Assembly (NCBI GenBank): GCA_951406725.2
Contig: OX597814.1
Location: forward strand, 43,214,001 to 43,278,000
Direction: 5' to 3'
Source: Octopus vulgaris
Taxonomy: Eukaryota
DNA length: 64,000 bases
The notes under the pieces were generated by a model. It ran no database searches, had not been told where the DNA came from, and was given only the letters and a program-made list of their open reading frames with translations. This document shows, in pieces, positions 5,903 to 64,000 of the stretch (within the stretch, counting starts at the first letter, position 1; each line of letters begins with the position of its first letter). The position numbers and the translations under genes are program-made.

Positions 5903-7045
5903 ATTAGGTCATCAAGTATGAAATTGAAGAAAAGAAAAAATGTTTGCTAATGTTGTATAAATACAAATAATAGTTTTATTCATCAACGTATGCACCCATA
6001 TTGTCAGTACACTTGCTATTTGAGCGATAGCTTGTTGAACCCGGAACTATAAAAGCCTGGCAATCTAGAATCAGTAAAATCTTAGAAGGCCTGTTTTACA
6101 GCATCGTCGGAATTAAATTCTTTTCCTATGAAAATGTTACCCAATGTCTGGAAAGATCAGGTATGATGGATGATGGAGAACTTCCAACATCAACTCCCGT
6201 AGTTTCGCCAATGTCATTTTTGTAATGTGTGGTCTGGCATTGACTTGCAATAAAATAGGAGTGGATCTGTTGAATAATTTTGGCTTGTTTTGTAAGTTTC
6301 TCCATCATTTGATCCAGTTGGTTGCAGTATACTTCGGCCGTGATTGATGAACTAATTTTGATGAAATCATAATGGATCACAATTGCGCCAGACCAGCAAA
6401 CACACATCATCAGCTGTGGACTGTGTTTTGGGGGGTCGTCTTTGTCCAGCCAATGTGCTGAACGTTTACAGTTGTTGTATTGGATCCATTTCTCATCACA
6501 TGTTACAATTCGATTCAAAAATTATTCATTTTTGTGACGAGAAAGTAGCATAATGTAGGCTTCCAAACGTTGCTGTTTTTGATTTTCATTGAGTTCATGT
6601 GGAACCCACTTATCCAACCTTTTTCTTTTCCGATTTGAACAAGGTGAGTCAATATTGTTTACTTGCTAACACCAAACAACAACAATAATTCACGGGCATT
6701 TTGAGATGGATCTGACTCTAAGGTGGCATTCAGTTCGTCATCACCTTTGTTTCTGGTCGAGCGCGTTGCTCATTTGTGAGGTCAAAGTTGAAAGAACGAA
6801 ATTTTGCAAACCCGTTTGATACTATCTGCATTAGAATGAAATATTCCATTAATATTCCGAGCTGTCTGTGATGCTGTGTTTCCAAGAAAGAACTCATATT
6901 TAAAGACTGTACGAATTTCCGACTTATCCATCTCTAAATAAAAATAGCAAAAAACGATTTATAAACACTTTATAAAGCACAAGATGAATAAGAATGAAGC
7001 AATAGATGTGTTAGCATTCTAACAAAAAATAAAGAATGTCAAAAT
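5903..7045 (-). mobile_element. Near full-length degenerate mariner element
   Basis: Minus strand reads MDKSEIRTVFKYEFFLGNTASQTARNING (start ~6931), KWVPHELNENQKQQRLEA (~6610) and RIVTCDEKWIQYNN (ORF 6126-6518). A TIR-like TATTAGGTCATC lies at 5902. The other TIR is not evident. Confidence 0.88.
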
Positions 7046-21984: not shown

Positions 21985-25030
<3,046 letters not shown>

Positions 25031-25957
25031 GACGTACAGTAGGACTGTGTGGGTTTAGTACAAATAAGAAAGTGGTATAATGGATTCGAAACCCTGATCA
25101 GAAACTTTCGGCTTTCTGACAGGTATCGATTGTTTCCCTGATACGCCAGTGTGGATATGGAACAATCACAATGGGTCATCCAGATTGTATCTATATAGAA
25201 TGTTTTAGATCAGCAGATAAGGATAGTATAGGGTTTCCCCGATTGAAATTGGTCGACTACAATTTGAAATTGGTCGACTGTGATTTGCACAGTTAATTTC
25301 TATAGGATGAGTGGACATGATTCCAGTTACTGGAAGTTGAACGTGTCCTTTCCGGCGCACAAAGACTGCAGGGACCCGATTAGTAAACTGATTAGGCAGC
25401 AGTTGAAGTAGGTAATCGTTAACTCTGGAGTTGCATAGCCCTGAAGAGTGCGATTAGGACATAATCAGTAGAGTTTACCAAAAAGTTAGTTATAGAAAGA
25501 AACGGATTAGAGGGAGAACTAGAAGAAGCGATTAGTAAACACATGGCTAATGGCGTGTTTAGCGGCAAGAATGGCTCTTGACTATTTCTTTGAGGTGAAT
25601 CACAAAGGTTGCGTTGTCAGAGCTAAACCAGTGCGCTAAAGCATGAGGAAACTGAAGCGGTCCGAAAGCCCCGAACGATGGAGACTTGACGAGACTACAA
25701 AACCATGATCACTTCTTTGATGGATCGTGAAGGGGGCGTACTACATGGTTCTTAGAAGTTGTGTGCGGCTTTTCAACAGCACTTCCCGCAACTCCTTGGA
25801 GACGACGATGCGTCAACAACGGTGACGAAATTAAGTTCGTACCAGGATGAGCTGCGGCTGCTCTCGGTGGCGGGCTCGAGGTTCTTCCAAAAGCAGGTAA
25901 ACGCCACTGAAATACCAGATGTGTCGAGCGATTGCACAAGTTGCATATCATCAAGTT

Positions 25958-27760
25958 TAGGTGGTCTGTCCTATAAATTCTATGTATTCATGTCAGATTT
26001 GTTTGGCAACCCTTTGGCAGGCGTTAAACGCAACTGGTAAAATAAAGGGAAAATTCCCAGTGCTGATAGTCGGGCTGTGGTGACGCTGACAGTGAGAACA
26101 TACTAAGGAATTTTCGGCCCATAACTCTGGTAAACGCAAAGTCTGAGATTTTGGCCAAGGTCTTAGCGAAAATGTTGGGGCTTGTCATTGGTATTCTAAT
26201 AGGGGAAGTACAAACGTGTACCATCCCCAACAGGTCTATCCACGAAAGCGTCCACCTTATGCAATACTTCTTATAGATGGTTGGAACTAAAGATGGCTTC
26301 GGTGGGGCACGGATATATTTGGATCAATTAAAATCATTCGATAGGGCTACTTGGAAGCCGTCCCTGAAGCGGTCGGTTTCAGACCCCTTCTCAGAGGATA
26401 GATCACTGCAATGCACAGCGGTACCTGCTCAGTGGTCAAAGTAAATGACCATCTATCGAGACCATTTAGCATCGCACTGTCGGTCCCTCAGGGCTGCCTA
26501 CTCTCACCTCTTTTGTACCTGTTGGCTCCCGAGCCACTGCTACGGAAGTTGGAACAATTGAGAGGCATCCTTTCTGAATTGGGTCTCGGAAGTGCAGTGT
26601 CTGCAAATGCGGACGACGTAACTCTCATGGTGTCAGACGCCTTCGATGTGGAGACGGTTGGCTCCATTCCAGAAGAATATGAGTCAGTTGAAGCGACTAA
26701 AATCAATGCCGAGAGGTCGGTGGGCTTGCGGCTGGGCACCTCTTGAGGCAAGTCGATGCTGCCAGACAACGCCGTCGGACGCTATACTGATGGACCAGTT
26801 AAAGTGCTCGAGGTGTAGTTTGGTCTGACTACCAGGCGGATAAGGATTGAGACGAGTTGACGATAGGGCTACTTGGAAGCCGTCCCTGAAGTGTGACCGA
26901 TCTTACCCAGAAATCGGCTGAGTGGAAGCCATACGTGAAAAGTCGGGCAAAGATGACGAATGCCTACATCGTACCCGTTATCATTTATCGTCTAGCCGTC
27001 GTGCTTACTCCAGTTGTTGTTTGACCAAGTTGCAGCAACTTAATGTTCTTGTTAATGTTCTTGTTAATGCAGTTGTCAGGCAGTTAATCTGCTTTCAGCT
27101 CCCTCTGAGTGGCGGCTTAGGCATGCGGTGGAGTTTGAGCCGCAAACATGCGCTCAGGTTGCGCTACCTGCAACCATTTGTAGAAGGTGACCGTGTGGGG
27201 GCTCACTGTCCTCTACCAGTCGGGCAACGGCGACGAGATTTAGTTCGTACCTGGATCACCTGCAGGTAAACGCCACTGAAATACGAGATGCGGCTTAGGC
27301 ATGCGGTGGCGTTTGATACATAACTAAATGGGAACATATAGTTATTTATAGCGGATAAGTGGCGGTAAATTGCGGCAACATCCTAGGGGAGAATCTTGGC
27401 GTTGCGGATATTATGGATCATTCCCAAACGCCTTGAAAAGCAAATTGAAGGTGGCAAGGGAGGCGCTGTCCTCGAGTGAATTCCTGAAAAGGTGGGACAA
27501 AGTTACGAAAAGGGTAACAGTGGATGGTACCGCTCTCAGTGTAGGCCTATGAGTCGGAGGAAAGGAGTTGGAAAAGGGATTTGTCTGTGGTCAGTGTTAT
27601 ATTGAATGGTGGGGTTCCTCGGTCATACCTCGTGGTCCTTCTGTATCCGGAAAACCCACATCACATTTGTTTCCTTATTGCTGTATACTATGTATACGTC
27701 ACTTCTTTTTATATCATTCTATTATATGTACACCTACACACTTCGGCCTTGTGGCAAAGA
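25958..27760 (+). mobile_element. L1/Tx1-like non-LTR retrotransposon RT region, degenerate
   Basis: Reads NFRPITLVNAKSEILAKVLA, QTCTIPNRSI, LDQLKSFDR, VPQGCLLSPLLYLLAPEPLLRKL, SANADDVT, KINAERS and LPLSGGLGM. Confidence 0.85.
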
Positions 27761-55172: not shown

Positions 55173-56376
55173 TCAATTAAAAGTAGATTACTGCCTATAC
55201 GACAGCAGATGTTTAATGAGAATGTATCGCAGCAATTTAGTAGTACCTTGAATAATAGTAACGCTAAGCACAATTAAATAATAACGACGTCATTCCCATG
55301 AGACCATGTCTAGGATAGTATTAGCACTGTCCCTAAAAAAATGCATTTCTCAGTGATTTAAATACCACCTTACTACGCATTATCAGAGCACATTCAATTT
55401 GATTGTATGACTTCTTGTAATGAATCTTCCACATGTTGTTAACTATACTGGAAGACCTTGCGGTATAGATGTAGTTCTGCGCAGAAAGTGTTTGTGGTTT
55501 TGTAGTGAGAATATGACAGAAGAGCAAATTCTGAGTGCAGAACATTTTCCGGCTTGCTAAAGGAAATTTATGATAATTTGAATTCAATCAGGTGTATATA
55601 AATCAAGATGTCAGGAGTAAACTCGTACACGAGGTCAAGTGGAAGATGTGTCACGTTCAGCGTTAAAATTCCATTGGTTGAAGGATTTGGGTTGAAGGAG
55701 TAATGAAGGTCGCATAAAAGGCGAAGTATTGCTACTGTAGGGGATTTCCAATAATGCTTTTGGATGATATCAGCTCGATTTCTAATTGAGCGTAGGCAAG
55801 ATGGGAGCTGAATGATACAGTTAAATGAAAGACAATTTTTCAGAAATCTTCAACTTAAGCATTTTTGGGGGGGTGGGAGGTTAAATGAAATATTGCACCA
55901 ATAAAAATTTCATTACTGTAAATAATTTGTCAGAAAATCCTCATATTATGACATCCGGATGTATTGTATGATGATAGACACGTATGTCATTCACATACAC
56001 ACATGCATACCCATATATACGCACGCACACACACACACACCTTCACACACATACATATGTATGTCGCTTTTGTGACCACTATTAAGTTTGCCTTTAGGTT
56101 CTAATTGCTAATATGCCACCTTCTTTATTTTTTACACTTCTACCGTTTGAAAGTCAACATATGTTTTCAACAGCTTTTCTTATAGGATTGAAAAAGGAAG
56201 TTGAGTTAATCCCTAGGCGTTAACATCCGCTGAGGAGAATTGAAGAGATCTAGAACAAAATTCGAAATCGCGATATGGCTATATATGCTTGGGCCTTACC
56301 TCCCTTTGTCAGTCATTAGGTATAGTGCTTTAGTGGCTTTGGAATTAATGTAACTCTTATTGTAGCATAAGCGGTG

Positions 56377-57345
56377 CTAGTCAGCACCCTCCGTCACTTT
56401 TGCGATCTCTATTAATTTCAGGCTTTACTTGCTAATAAGCCTTTTTTAATATTTTTGCATTGCTCAGAAGTTTGAAGAATGTTAAAAGTAAGAAATATAT
56501 ATATTCTGATAGAAAATATATATTCAGAAAAATTCTATCGCATGAAGTTAAAATAACTTCATGTTAAAACAACTTCACAATGTGAAGTTAAAATAACTTC
56601 ACATGAAGTTAAAATAAACAGTTATTAAAACAAATCCTGAAATCAATCACAGTTTTATTTTGTAGAACTTCTAAATTTACAATGTTTTCTATAATTGGGA
56701 TGCGCCTAAAAAGAGCTCTAGGACCTCCAACTCACGAATATTCTCTCCATGAGAGAAGCAAAGAGAAGCAAGATTAAGTCCAACAATCTTGAGAGATTGT
56801 CCTTGAGATTTGTTTATCGTCATAGCAAAACTCAGTTTCAGTGGGTATTGGAATCGTTTAAATTGAAAAGGGAGATCAGGTGGGATAAACAGGAACCGTG
56901 GAATGAAGACATCTTCACCATTATATTTCCCAGTAATAATTGCTGCTCCTAGGACTTGATGTTACACAGCTTTCACCACCAGTCTGGTGCCATTGCACAG
57001 ACGAAGTGGATATAGATTTCTAAGCAGCATGTTTGGGGCTCCTATTTCAGTGTTAATTTGTGTGTTGGTATCCCGGATGTCTGTTGTGTGTTCAGGAATA
57101 CAGTTTACAAAATTACAGCTTCGTCCCAATAAATGACAGTGTCGATGGATTTGAAAGACTGTTCCGGTCCTGGCAACAGCTGCAAGCGATTCTAATTGAT
57201 TCTGTCGGCAGCATCATTACGTAGAACTAAGATGGTTCGCTCACTTAGCCATGGACTGTTGCTAAAGTTTTGTGGAATGTTTGGAAACACCTGCTTTTTG
57301 AGATCATTTACAGATGGTACTCTCTCACCACAGTGTAGCTTGTGT
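56377..57345 (-). mobile_element. Second Helitron fragment: PIF1-like helicase C-terminus and probable 3' end
   Basis: Minus strand reads VFPNIPQNF...WLSERTIL..RND, SIDTV, FLNT..TSGIPTHKLTLK.GAP.MLLRNL.P.RLCNGTRLVV, GEDVFIPR...PFQFKRFQYPLKLSFAMTINKSQGQSL..VGL....FSHG. A CTAG lies at 56377-56380 next to a small hairpin. Confidence 0.88.
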
Positions 57346-57919
57346 TGCTGTTACAATTATCATATAAATGATAACAAATTGTGTTTTAAATGAAATTAAA
57401 ATCCTGGTTCAGTGACATATCGATTGCGTTCGTACGGTTTTAATGTTTTTGCTAACAACATATTCTCTGTTCTAATTAAATATTGAAAAAAGAGATAAAA
57501 TGCCACTGTCGCTTTTGCAAGAAAAATTAAGTTAGCTTGGCTCGTGAAGGGTGCATGGTATTGCCTGTAAGCCTTTCCAAAGACTAGTATGTACATGTAC
57601 AACCTTTAGACCGGTGTGGGTGTGGGGATATGTTTTCGTAACAAAGAGAAAAAATGTGAAGCTTGATCATGTGGAATCATATTTCGTGAATTTCTATGAA
57701 AAAATGTTAATTCTTTAATCTCTTTGGAAGGCGACATTTTCTTTGATATGAAAGCAGATAGTGAGAGGGGAAAGTAAAAGATGTATGTAAGTGTATATGA
57801 AATGGAAGTCTGCGTGCGTGTGAGAGATAGAGAGAGAGAGTGGGCGGGGGAGTGAGTGAGTGAGTGAGTGAGTGAAGGTGGGTGTTGTCATGTATATTTC
57901 TGCATGTATGTGTAAATGG

Positions 57920-57969
<50 letters not shown>

Positions 57970-59984
57970 GTCTTTCGCACATACTCATCTTTCAGATGCA
58001 AGTACATGCGTATTTCTTTTTTGTATGTGCGTCTGTGTGTGTGAGAGAGAGAGAGGGGAAGAGAGAGAGTGAAGGTGTGTGTTGTCAAGCATATATGAGT
58101 GACACTCTCTCGCTCATTCACTGTCTTTCATATAAACGTACATACATCACTACATATGCATAAATCTTTTTCGTATATGTGTATGAGAGAGGGAGGGAGA
58201 GAGAGAGTGAGTGAAGATGGGTGTTGTCATCTATGTATTGTTTTGCATGCATGTGTAAGTGGCACTCACTCTAACTCGCACACACGCACACACTACCTTT
58301 CATATACAGGTACATATATAGATACATATACACACAGCTTTTGTGTGTATGTGTGACAGAGGGAGAGAGAGTGTGTCACTTACACATTATAACACACCTT
58401 TACTCACTCAAATTCTCCCTCTCTCTCATTCTCTCTCTCTCTCTTTCACACACACACACACACACACGTCCATCTTTCTTTTTCTCCTTTCATTCGGTTT
58501 CTGCTATCGAGGTAACGAAATACTACCATGGAGGGCGTGTAATAGGAGGGTTAAGGTGGATGGTCATGAGAGGTGGAGGTGTGGTTGGAAGGGTAGGGGA
58601 GAGGTTCCTCAAACCCTTCCACTTTAACCGGTGGTATAACTGAGAAATGTATAGGGAAGTGTATAGAAATGTGCCGCAGCCACCCGTCTAGGAGGGAAGG
58701 TGTCGTCCCCTCGTTTACCGGGTTGTATGTAATGTTAGTTATTAGTATACAATATTTTTTAATATCTCTATCCAAGTATGGTTGCTCACATTTTATTTAA
58801 AATAGAAATATCCAGTGATAATAAGTCGAGTTGCTCGAAGAATTTTAAAATAGGGAATGTAAGCATATATTAATTTTTTATCCATATCCAAGAATAAATA
58901 CTCACATCAGATTTAAATGTGAAATATCAAGTGTTAACAAGGCGAGTTGTTTCAAAAATACCCAAAAATATGTATTGGAATTTTATCAAGATATAACATT
59001 TTGTAATTCCTATGCAAGTAGAAATAGTCTTATCGAATTTAGATCTGAAATATCGAGTGTACACTAGCTAATATTATTAGGTCCATCCCACGAACAATTA
59101 TTTGAAACAACTCATGTCGATATATCTAACTAATGTCACGGGAATATTGAAATTTAAAATTTATTAAAATGAAAGATATCCTACAGTGTATATTAACTAA
59201 AGGACCTAATGAATAAATAACTTATATCAATGTAATAAGAGTTTTTATCGGTCGGGCGTCCGTATGAAATGCTTTCGTTATTTAGAAACCTTCCTGCTTT
59301 TTTCTTATAAAAATTACGTTGTCTAACATCGAATTTTAAGTTTTACATTATAGTAATTCCAGTTCTTCACGGAGAAACCCTGCACTGAAGGGGTGACAGG
59401 TGCGTAGCACCAGCCTTGCTGTAAACACGTTTATGGTTTAGGGATAGAGTTATGGTTAGTTTTTAGTGGGCATGTTGTTATTGGAGATATGTCCCACATT
59501 TTGGTCCCGTCACAATTATGTTTATCTGGAAGCAAGAATTGCTTGTAAGTGTTGGAGTCAATGCGCGCGCGACAGGATCGTACACAGAAGTTTTGATGAG
59601 AAAAGTACTTTTACATACCTTGCTGCCAATTCATTGGATTAATCCCAACGTTTTTGATAACAACATATTCTCTCTTCCAATTAAATATTGAAAAAGAGAG
59701 AAAATGCCACCCTCTCTGCTGCACGAGAAATTGATTTTGGCGCTAAGAACTCAACCACTTGTTTCATTATCACAATTAAAAAGTGTTTATCTTTACTTTT
59801 AAAATAAAAGAGGTAGGGTCGTAGACGTATGACGGAGAATAATTCAGTATCGTGTTTGCTTTTCAAATTCAATTTAAGGCGTTATATTTGAAGTGATTTA
59901 GAGAAAATCTTACTTACTTAATTATTGATGTGTACCCTTTAATGATTTTTTTATTAATTTCTTTCGAAATATAATTTTAGATAG

Positions 59985-60460
59985 TAGAAATCCTTAAATT
60001 CAAGCTTGAAAAAGCAAAAATGTGTTTACTTTTGTGCATGAATTGAAACTTGGACACAATGCTTCCAAAACAGCCGCCAATATCAGCAAAGCATGGGGTG
60101 AAGGTTCCACTAGAGGTCGGACGGTACAACGGTGGTTTGAGAGATTCCGTAGTGGACATGGGGACCATGTTGATCAAGACGGTAGAGGATGCCCATGCAC
60201 CCTTGATGATCAGCATTTGAAAACAATACAGCTTTCTAAACCTAACATTACATATGCTCATTACATAGGAAATTTACTTTTAGCAACCGGTAGAAATGTA
60301 TCTTCACTTGAGCAAAATGCACTGTTAATCGGTGTGATTCAATTATTTTTTAAGACAATGCTCAACCGCACGTTTCCGGGAGGAAACTACAAAAGCTCAC
60401 AAAATCAGGATAGGAGACTTCAAGAAATCCTCCATATTATTCTGTTCTTTCACCTTTAAG
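59985..60460 (+). mobile_element. Internally deleted mariner transposase relic
   Basis: ORF 60022 has ELKLGHNASKTAANISKAWGEG..RTVQRWFERFRSG...GRG.P (HTH). Another frame has F*DNAQPHVS...KL....NPPYYSVLSP. Confidence 0.85.
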
Positions 60461-61228
60461 AGCGGTCTGGTTCATTATTAGTATGCTCGTTTGTATGAGC
60501 AGTCGTGTTTATTTCAGATATTCTTATTTAAAAAATCATCTGTGCCTAATCGTTGAGGGGATATTGGTGTTATTTTGGCGGAGGTGTGCGCTCTCTGATT
60601 ACTCTTGCTTTAATTTAAAATAGGCAATTCAATCTATTTTAAATTTCCTTACTCGCAGAATTTAAAACTTATGTATTTATTTATTTTATTTTATTAATCT
60701 GTTTGATAACATTTATGTATGAACGGAAATAACACTTCACCAAATTCTATTTAAAGAAACATGTTTGTTTGTTTGTTCTTTATATATTTTGTGTATTAAT
60801 TACATTGCCTCATCCGCTAGGCATCAATTTATTACAGCTTCATTTTATCGTATCTGTCAAGTTAGCTACATATATATTTGTTTCCATCTCTTTGCGACTA
60901 TTTGAAAAGAAATCATCGTCTATATTTATGAGCTGTATATGTACACATACATAAAACATCACCCAAACACCTTTCATGTTTAGTTCTTAAGGAAGTTTAA
61001 CTATTTCTATACAAGCTGCAATGGAAATTTATAATAATTGAATTTATGCTAAACTTAAGTATAGTTTATGTAACACTAACAAGGTTTGACTGCATAAATT
61101 ATTGATGAAGAACAGAAAATCCACCAAACACGGGGAAAAAAAAGGAAATTAATTTATATTTTACACCTAAATTAAATTATCGACTGCATCAAATATATGT
61201 GGGATATCTAAGCTTATATGCACACACA

Positions 61229-61282
<54 letters not shown>

Positions 61283-61799
61283 CATGCTTTTACACTTATA
61301 TGAAACCTGAGTATTTGGTTAAGGGGTTAATGCTTGATTCATGTATTTAGTTTACATGTTATATCAAAAACCTCATTAGTAGTTCATAATATATTTTCGA
61401 ATTAATTTTTAACTGTACAAATTTGAAAACATGGTATCGAAAAGAATTACAAGATTATATTACTTTGCCTTCAATTCAATCGTCATCAACAGTCAATCTC
61501 ATTATGTATTTGAGTATTCCTATGTTTCTTAGTATCATATACATATCGATTACTATTTTCAATATCGGTATTTTCATTGTCGAAATTCACAAGCACTAGT
61601 TTTATATACATGTGTATCATTTACTTATCATGCTTTGTGCTTGTTAATTTTACTCCCAATAGAATGTTTCTTTTGAGAAGATTCTCACAGAGACAATATA
61701 CTTATTTCCTTGGTAACAATTCTCTGTTAAGTACTACGTTCGTTTTTAGTAAGATTAGGGAGCGCGAAATTCGAACGACTAGATTATGTGTGTGTGTGC

Positions 61800-61834
<35 letters not shown>

Positions 61835-63025
61835 TGTGTCTGTCTGTGTGTGTCTGTGTATATGCTTGCGCGTGTTTGTGAGTGAGTGAGAGAGAGATGA
61901 GATATTACGAATATGTGTACTTTGAAATGTAATATCCGTTAAAAATTTATGATAATAGTGTAATTATATTTCCGCATTAAAAAGTAAACTGTATAGATAT
62001 TTATCTTCAAAAAATGTAGCTTCCAAAATATTGGTTTTCGTCTTGTATAACATTCAAAGCAGAAAGGAATTGTTGTAGTTTGAAAAAAAGGAAGGATAAA
62101 TGGTTAAGAACTTTGTAATGATTACAAACGCATGCACAACTAAGAATGGTGGGTATAAACATTTGTTTTTTTTATATTTCAGTGTGGGATAACTTGTTCA
62201 ATATCTAAACAGCATAACTAACTTATTATTTTAGATGATTATTTCAAGTTAGCTAAATGCACGTTCATGTACATTTTTTTACTAAGGGATGAAATGATAA
62301 TTACATACAAGATTATTTCCAAAAGACGATGCAGTGTAACAGCTACCAATTTTATATATAGTATAAATACTTGAATCCTTCTGTGAACAGAAGATAGGTA
62401 TACTCTCAATGAAGTATGTTAAATGATATGATGAAGTGGAAACTAGTGAGAGTGATTCTATTTTTCTACATGTAGGAAGATAAACTCTTACACGTGAACC
62501 ACTAAAGATGTTTTTCATGCCTAAGCCAAAAGTGTACGTTTATGAAAATGATACATTAGATTACATTTCAAAACAACTCTGCAGTGCGTCATTAATAAAT
62601 CAATGAACCGCACATCTGATCCTGTAGTGTTAAGTAAACAAGATAGAGAAGTTTCACTGTGTTCTAATTTATATAGCGAATAAATTCCTGAAAGCTGCAA
62701 TACATTTTTTTGAGCGTTTGGTGTGTGTGTGTTTACGTGTTCAGGCGATGGATATCTTCACAGAGATGAAAGCCTAAACAGACTGGGAAATAATGAGATC
62801 GATCCCAAATTTTAAGATCTGGGAGATATAAAAAAATTGTGTTTAAAACATTTTTCTATTTACTTCTTAATTGAAAAGAAATCAAACAAAATTGATAATT
62901 GCGTATGTTTAACTACGCATGTTGATAGATATGTAAGTAAATGTATATAATTGCATGCATTCTGGTCTATATATTTATATGTAGAACATATAAATCTATC
63001 TATCTACCTATCTATCGGTTAATAA

Positions 63026-63106
<81 letters not shown>

Positions 63107-63434
63107 TGACACACTCTAAATGTTTTCTTGGTGTTAAACACTTTTAAGATGTGGTACTTCGTCGAGAGTCCTTCTACAGTGTTAAAAATATAAACACAAT
63201 ATATTTCAAAACCTGGCGAAACAAATACCCCGAGAGTTGAAGGAAAATAATGGATAAACTGATTTCCCAGTAATTTCTACTCGATTCACCCTCGATACAA
63301 ATTCGAATCATTGAGCTGAAATATACACAGGTAGTGTCAGATCTCTGTTTATTTGAATCAGAGCTATATAAGTATAAAAAAAAATCAAATTGTAAAGAAC
63401 AGTCATATATATATATATATATGATGGACTCTCC

Positions 63435-63502
<68 letters not shown>

Positions 63503-63636
63503 ATGAGGGTGTCTAAAAGACACCAACATGCTGAAATAGCAGTCGAAACTCTGACTATAAAACCACGTTAAATGTTCATATCGCACCATGAGGTAAAGCG
63601 GAGGGACAAAACATACAAGCAAAAATTATTGAATAA

Positions 63637-63694
63637 TTCATGATCCAAGGATTTCTGGTTCTGCTTTAGATAAGCTTTACCGTCATCAATTGAA
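63637..63694 (-). ncRNA. Hammerhead motif, mirror copy in the left arm
   Basis: Reverse complement of the 63868-63925 motif. The inner stem II GCUU/AAGC is intact and the first stem-I pair is mismatched. Confidence 0.6.
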
Positions 63695-63867
63695 TATATC
63701 AAGGGTACATAAATACAGATACATATATGCACAGCAAATGATGATTTGGCGGGCGACTCAAACTGGCTGTGTCCATACGTGCATATGTATGTATGTGCGA
63801 CGCTCGTATATGTAAGTATATCGTTTGCTGTGCATATATGTATCTGTATTTATGTACCCTTGATATA

Positions 63868-63925
63868 TTCAATTGATGACGGTAAAGCCTATCTAAAGCA
63901 GAACCAGAAATCCTTGGATCTTGAA
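63868..63925 (+). ncRNA. Type I hammerhead motif (UUGAUGA core) in the right arm
   Basis: UUCAA-UUGAUGA-C GGU..ACC A-GAA-AUCC UU GGAU-C-UUGAA, with a 5-bp stem I and an AUC cleavage triplet. Confidence 0.68.
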
Positions 63926-64000
63926 TTATTCAATAATTTTTGCTTGTATGTTTTGTCCCTCCGCTTTACCTCATGGTGCGATATGAACATTTAACGTGGT

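Follow-up and report, generated by a model that had tools for sequence, protein, structure and literature searches.

Head-to-head partial copies of a 482-nt repeat with a hammerhead-like motif in Octopus vulgaris, probably inserted by a Penelope-type mechanism

Metazoan non-LTR retrozymes have been described as non-coding, low-GC tandem units with one type I hammerhead motif each, which are dispersed as monomers to tetramers and are likely derived from Penelope-like elements (PLEs), according to the accessible parts of two surveys (PMC7229834; bioRxiv 10.64898/2026.07.22.740005). An inverted, 5'-truncated copy together with a tail at one end is reported as typical of PLEs (PMC8557442, PMC3846280), and the openly available text on EN+ PLE insertions further describes a head-to-head arrangement of the copies, partial tandems, AT-rich or (TA)n insertion sites, an optional target-site duplication (TSD) and junctions at microhomology (PMC3846280, PMC8557442, PMC11167929). 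Dual hammerheads on opposite strands, 100-700 bp apart, were reported in 2014 for Schistosoma mansoni (PMC4209133); the accessible part of the same paper describes minimal and variant PLE hammerheads with an unpaired base after A9, a G at position 10.1 and a short, palindromic helix III suited to dimers.

The octopus family analysed here resembles the metazoan retrozymes in its non-coding, low-GC tandem unit with a single putative type I motif and in its dispersal. Its length of 482 nt is covered by the 51-972 bp that Li, Clavereau and Pollet 2026 (bioRxiv 10.64898/2026.07.22.740005) give for such units and exceeds the 150-450 bp of Cervera and de la Pena 2020 (PMC7229834), as these ranges stand in the available text. 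Unlike those retrozymes, its predicted hammerhead core has U3 facing G8 and an extra base before G12, and about a third to a half of its loci are arranged head-to-head, a layout not described in the accessible portions of either survey. The insertions share with those of EN+ PLEs each of the features listed above, whereas the element itself is without an RT/GIY-YIG ORF and has a tail of ~100 nt, compared with the 30-40 nt described in the parts of the PLE papers that are open to us. The motif has the unpaired base after A9, the G at 10.1 and the dimer-suited helix III of the PLE hammerheads in PMC4209133; the core variant given in the available part of that paper is a compensated U3-A8, in contrast to the uncompensated core of the young octopus family and the C3U4 or C3C4 cores of its sister subfamilies.

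The window, by which we mean the whole stretch of DNA analysed, comprises 64,000 nt of contig OX597814.1 (43214001-43278000) in a genome of 2.8 Gb and 227 contigs, and the sequence to its right was read on as locus L001 to complete the right arm. An inverted-repeat search confirmed the long foldback recognized in the initial annotation, with arms of 181 nt (63562-63742 and 63820-64000) that are 98% complementary and separated by 77 nt. Once read past the window the full arms measure 248 nt (63495-63742 and the window-equivalent 63820-64067) and differ at four places (63532, 63641, 63673 and 63739 in left-arm numbering), three of which fall inside the 181 nt visible in the window. The element is asymmetric, the left arm ending at a fixed site A and the right part extending to a second site, B. 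The proposed check on whether the right arm continues to a TGAGGGT terminus and (TA)n had a different outcome on extension: the arm passes the mirror terminus, and a tail of ~100 nt precedes the (TA)n. The right part is 430 nt long, includes the 77-nt spacer, crosses site A and runs about 100 nt further to site B. The total insert of 675 nt is flanked by (TA)n tracts of 58 nt on the left and 61 nt on the right, and outside both of these lies a 17-nt direct repeat (Table 1). One base of the head-to-head junction has likely been changed by CpG decay. Fragments of mariner-type transposases or reverse transcriptases are present elsewhere in the window, at 1728-2171, 6129-6521, 60010-60456, 24504-25097 and 26402-26743.

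Table 1. Coordinates of the features of the OX597814.1 locus, in window numbering.
Feature	Position	Strand	Remarks
17-nt direct repeat, left copy; likely target-site duplication	63420..63436	+	Right copy L001:2234-2250, window-equivalent 64228-64244
(TA)n tract of 58 nt, separating the left direct repeat from the A end of the element	63437..63494	no strand	
Left arm: 248-nt, 5'-truncated, tail-less copy of the 482-nt unit with its 3' end at site A (63495)	63495..63742	-	
Type I hammerhead-like motif of the left arm	63633..63698	-	Core U3 at 63689; predicted cut between 63642 and 63641
Head-to-head junction with 3-4 nt of microhomology between two 5'-truncated copies	63739..63742	no strand	
77-nt "spacer": upstream stretch of the 482-nt unit, in the right copy only	63743..63819	+	
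Right arm	63820..64000, continuing past site A (equivalent 64067)	+	Tail of ~100 nt as far as site B (~64169); 61 nt of (TA)n beyond it
Type I hammerhead-like motif of the right arm	63864..63929	+	Core 63873-63879; GAAA 63907-63910; predicted cut after 63920

At almost every mapped locus the 3' ends adjoin AT-rich DNA or (TA)n, while a direct repeat in unique sequence was found at one of 39, namely the 17-nt repeat of the OX597814.1 locus. On the left side of this locus the 58-nt (TA)n sits between the repeat and the element, and on the right the repeat copy (L001:2176-2250 region) is followed by unique DNA. If the 17-nt repeat is a TSD, the 58 nt of TA were gained in the course of insertion or later. 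Long TA at the 3' end only is seen in several loci with a single arm (L005, L009, L019 and L024).

The DNA of the arms belongs to a non-coding tandem unit of ~482 nt that carries one type I hammerhead-like motif. With the left arm as query, a genome search in which 40 of 1527 candidates were scored yielded 46 matches, nearly all of them 97-99% identical. An exact 28-nt core pattern matched the genome 183 times, compared with no match for a backwards control pattern, and the family is therefore not a product of chance. The 100 core matches listed fall into 61 clusters, and among these matches 16 of the 19 same-strand spacings are 478-486 nt. With a period of 482-486 nt, a GC content of 34% and a longest stop-free frame of 101 aa, the repeat has the properties of the non-coding, low-GC tandem units that define retrozymes. 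A natural monomer, folded as a circle, has a predicted energy of -123.8 kcal/mol, compared with -96.9 +/- 4.5 for 40 shuffles (z about -6), a value compatible with a circular RNA. Private changes among the young copies amount to ~0.6% per base (117/19629), which indicates that the family is young. Sister subfamilies are found at 80-89% identity, with 223 matches to one motif, and a helix II pattern that spans the subfamilies has 437 matches in the genome. The unit was also found in public sequencing runs coded as four organisms, metagenome rows with a small share being set aside. We consider that the element is best read as a non-autonomous Penelope-type retrozyme.

An older related subfamily, about 78% identical, is also present. 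It forms palindromes of ~250 nt without a hammerhead (L084:808-1076; L088-L107), in which one arm is tailed and both arms are truncated near one near-palindromic spot; these were taken from 2466 first-look candidates with a query that is itself a palindrome, so the sample is biased. Two of these elements, L088 and L089, lie 2 kb apart on C9 and are near-identical, by local duplication or as an assembly duplicate. Within the young family, L014 and L015 (C23, at 42.45 Mb and 42.29 Mb) hold a near-identical element with identical flanks and are local or assembly duplicates.

The inverted layout is a recurrent property of the family. Among the matches listed, both strands are present in 20 of the 61 clusters, and in all 20 the minus-strand copy precedes the plus-strand copy with the 3' ends outward. 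Mapping of the 60 loci fetched yielded 39 distinct loci, the others overlapping, and 38 remained once L015 was dropped as a duplicate of L014. The count of palindromic versus monomeric copies that had been proposed for this family came to 20 two-armed loci and 18 with a single mapped arm. In the two-armed loci the main copy faces an inverted, 5'-truncated one across a head-to-head junction, as in Penelope insertions. Their ends are highly regular, with an A end and a B end at 18 of the 20, A/A or B/B at none, and an odd end at two; the tail is accordingly at one end only in the 18 A/B loci, again as in Penelope insertions. Single arms end at A in 13 cases and at B in five. The junctions vary at every locus, with overlaps of 0-6 nt or short fillers and one overlap of 35 nt, which indicates that the palindrome was formed anew at each insertion.

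These observations bear on whether the palindrome could be an artefact of assembly or of fold-back reads, a possibility that the initial annotation had raised. The junction is absent from the contigs listed for runs X1, X3, X7 and X13, as an artefact would predict; these contigs are mostly pieces of ~60 nt within the repeat. In a search for an empty allele at the left flank, contigs from X3 and X2 end before the (TA)n, and none was obtained from X1 or X16. Against an artefact, the arms differ at four private sites, the element is asymmetric and carries the 17-nt direct repeat on both flanks, and the 20 inverted clusters among the matches listed share one polarity and fixed ends. We therefore regard the palindrome as genuine and an artefactual origin as extremely improbable.

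In order to relate the two arms of each locus, we compared 14 family-polymorphic alleles, each present in at least three loci. The arms of a locus share 11 such alleles and differ at one, whereas 1.5 shared and 28.9 differing would be expected if one arm were swapped for a random family copy. One of 20 loci is discordant, compared with 10.1 expected, and none of 5000 random draws was as good; six of the 11 shared alleles represent one linked trio counted in two loci, and the informative loci number six. The OX597814.1 locus is among them, with both arms carrying an allele that occurs in 10 units out of 56. The sharing of family variants indicates that the two arms come from one template lineage. 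It would be equally expected with two RNAs from one source locus, or with gene conversion homogenising the arms.

Shared variants would also be accounted for by self-priming fold-back, in which a short palindrome or microhomology lets a cDNA or antisense template fold on itself, so that copying yields a hairpin insertion, the reading offered for inverted PLE junctions in the available part of PMC3846280. This route fits the OX597814.1 locus, where the B arm contains all of the A-arm sequence and the junction has 3-4 nt of microhomology, it fits six of the 18 A/B loci, and the arms of the older relative are joined at one near-palindromic spot, as fold-back would give. Other loci are difficult to reconcile with it. 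In 12 of the 18 A/B loci the 5' reach of the A arm exceeds that of the B arm (one a near tie; half of the mapped loci were chosen by a query starting at site A, which may favour long A arms), yet the tail is on the B arm only. At L008, L032 and L050 the A arm has no counterpart of the B-arm tail, and these loci could not be made by copying one arm. Fold-back also gives no reason for copying to stop exactly at A. As each arm can hold sequence absent from the other, two priming events are needed, and we consider fold-back an unlikely origin for these insertions.

Both arms carry the hammerhead-like motif described in the initial annotation, outward and one per strand, with cores at 63873-63879 (+) and 63689-63683 (-). 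Helix I of the motif has 6 bp, a base is left unpaired after A9, helix II is in two parts, and helix III is palindromic, which would allow pairing between two copies (predicted -8.9 kcal/mol). Across several subfamilies, represented by 14 sequences, pairing is present in 96% of 238 helix cells, a level reached by 28 of 500 shuffles; between subfamilies helix II shows a double change, from C-G to U-A, and a G-U/G-C change, so that covariation amounts to a single event. Activity is argued against by U3 facing G8, by the extra A before G12, by a predicted lowest-energy fold other than the hammerhead and by the lack of an Rfam match; the base of helix II is also mismatched (C·A). When single arms are folded, their energies do not surpass those of shuffles (z -0.4 to +0.2). 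According to the accessible parts of the relevant papers, a compensating A8 accompanies U3 in nature (PMC3088659, PMC4209133), a mismatch at the base of helix II occurs in active natural hammerheads (PMC7229834, PMC3088659), and PLE hammerheads work poorly and as dimers (PMC4209133). An Rfam scan of 56000-64000 gave 72 matches at E<=5, of low-complexity miRNA type, and no hammerhead; a genome search with RF00163 gave six hits from 73 scored candidates, all to other families, with the motif of the arms not among them. In the open literature, subscription papers being mostly outside reach, we found no paper on U3-G8 or C3U hammerhead cores. A separate type I hammerhead family with a long helix II insert passes the RF00163 cut-off (L109, L110, L113, ~1501-1608).

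The U3 variant is common to both arms, as had been noted, and is found throughout the young subfamily (U3U4), whereas the sister subfamilies have C3 (C3U4 or C3C4); U3 is thus probably derived. Two of the arm differences do lie in hammerhead helices, at 63641 in the first helix I pair of the left arm and at 63889 in upper helix II of the right arm. Both are private to the OX597814.1 locus, being found in 1/65 and 1/63 unit copies, respectively. The proposal that each arm preserves a pairing the other has lost is correct as a description, but the changes are two private, post-insertion mutations and not a complementary design. Both hammerheads of this locus have begun to decay. Purifying selection on the core was sought among the young copies and none was seen, private changes being no rarer there than elsewhere (6/774 versus 117/19629, with the core window offset by one base).

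A read-through transcript of the locus is predicted to fold into a long duplex of ~248 bp (-469 kcal/mol) that would hide the hammerheads, in agreement with the initial annotation. Such a duplex might suggest that the palindrome is a selected two-strand device, which would supply a ribozyme from either strand or be kept as a hairpin substrate for Dicer or ADAR. PLE copies give small RNAs in a rotifer, according to the available part of PMC3846280, and the unit is present in contigs of X7 and X13, two runs presumed to be of RNA, although contigs cannot show strand, ends or circles. This interpretation has to contend with junctions that are locus-specific, so that the palindrome is not amplified as a unit, with the private lesion in the hammerhead of each arm, and with core changes as frequent as those outside the core. 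Nor was a host gene detected in a scan of 72 of the 78 non-repetitive window frames and one downstream frame, in which small exons would be missed; Pfam matches were found in 5 of these 73 frames, all to transposase or RT fragments. We judge a selected device to be very improbable. The opposite-strand motifs point away from each other, and as a consequence the two cannot form a head-to-tail dimer. The opposite hammerheads are best read as a by-product of the insertion route, and not as a two-strand ribozyme device.

Intact ORFs with RT and GIY-YIG domains are present in the genome (781 aa, with a 785-aa relative), and in the coding PLEs at L083, L218 and L214, which lie in (TA)n, one end carries an inverted arm without a tail and the opposite end is tailed. 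A comparison with 20 GIY-YIG loci and 19 larger PLE regions revealed no autonomous partner sharing the 482-nt unit; the GIY-YIG search gave at least 148 matches from 6136 candidates, and a partner can have been missed. RT searches and two long loci of inverted or odd structure likewise gave no partner. The only real match to the unit in these comparisons lies ~1.3 kb from an ORF and represents a separate, older relative. There was no match between the unit and the pLTRs of the coding PLEs compared (39 loci and regions), and no RT and GIY-YIG ORF in the unit or within 10 kb around the locus. The identification of the foldback as a pLTR dimer of a coding Penelope element was rejected, given a non-coding 482-nt unit, an asymmetry of a ~100-nt tail and no coding partner found. 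The "young inverted pLTR dimer" of the initial annotation is retained as regards its Penelope-type origin, its youth and its inversion, and is revised to head-to-head partial copies of a non-coding unit.

The 781- and 785-aa PLEs represent two young coding families (L082:1745-4087 (+), L206-L210) whose RT parts are ~75% alike; many of their copies are open, and a second long frame often lies upstream. Canonical-looking hammerhead motifs lie upstream of coding PLEs in L073 and L207. A third PLE, L085:1821-4983, has 766-nt inverted ends that are 100% identical, each with a C3C4-core hammerhead motif that is also found in L212.

Taken together, these data make it highly probable that the 675-nt element is an insertion of two 5'-truncated, head-to-head copies, likely made by a PLE RT/endonuclease priming both ends of a break on the same RNA template. 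The intermediate would be a multimeric or circular RNA of the 482-nt unit. An enzyme dimer would cut both strands in AT-rich DNA, the two cDNAs, primed from opposite broken ends, would start one at A and one at B, and their ends would then be joined by microhomology or filler. Hammerhead cleavage would take place as a dimer, at a low rate if at all. Within the accessible part of PMC11167929, purified PLE protein is reported to cut and extend both strands of AT-rich DNA, to start at two RNA sites bounding the tail and to be a predicted dimer, and insertion in vitro does not need hammerhead cleavage. The start site in vitro did not differ between the strands, which leaves the strict one-A-one-B rule unexplained by what is available of that study. 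A tentative and more specific version of two-ended priming is that at each insertion one RNA is copied twice by a Penelope dimer with subunits at A and B, which may add TA, and that cleavage may be dispensable. The 58 nt of TA inside the duplicated target at the OX597814.1 locus point to possible TA addition at the primer end, and the drift of the core from C3U4 to C3C4 and U3U4 while the family keeps spreading suggests that cleavage may be dispensable. In the open literature, with subscription papers mostly outside reach, we found no paper on twin priming in Penelope-like elements.

The head-to-head layout and the opposite-strand hammerheads were already known, and the supplements of bioRxiv 10.64898/2026.07.22.740005, beyond the part available to us, may list related elements; the gain from the octopus family is mechanistic and modest. 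How PLEs make tandem and inverted insertions is described as still undefined in the accessible text of PMC8557442. The countable footprints of this young family, with one A and one B end per insertion and variants shared between arms, favour two-ended priming on a single template over fold-back. Its natural core variants, C3U4, C3C4 and U3U4, provide material for asking whether retrozymes must cleave in order to move.
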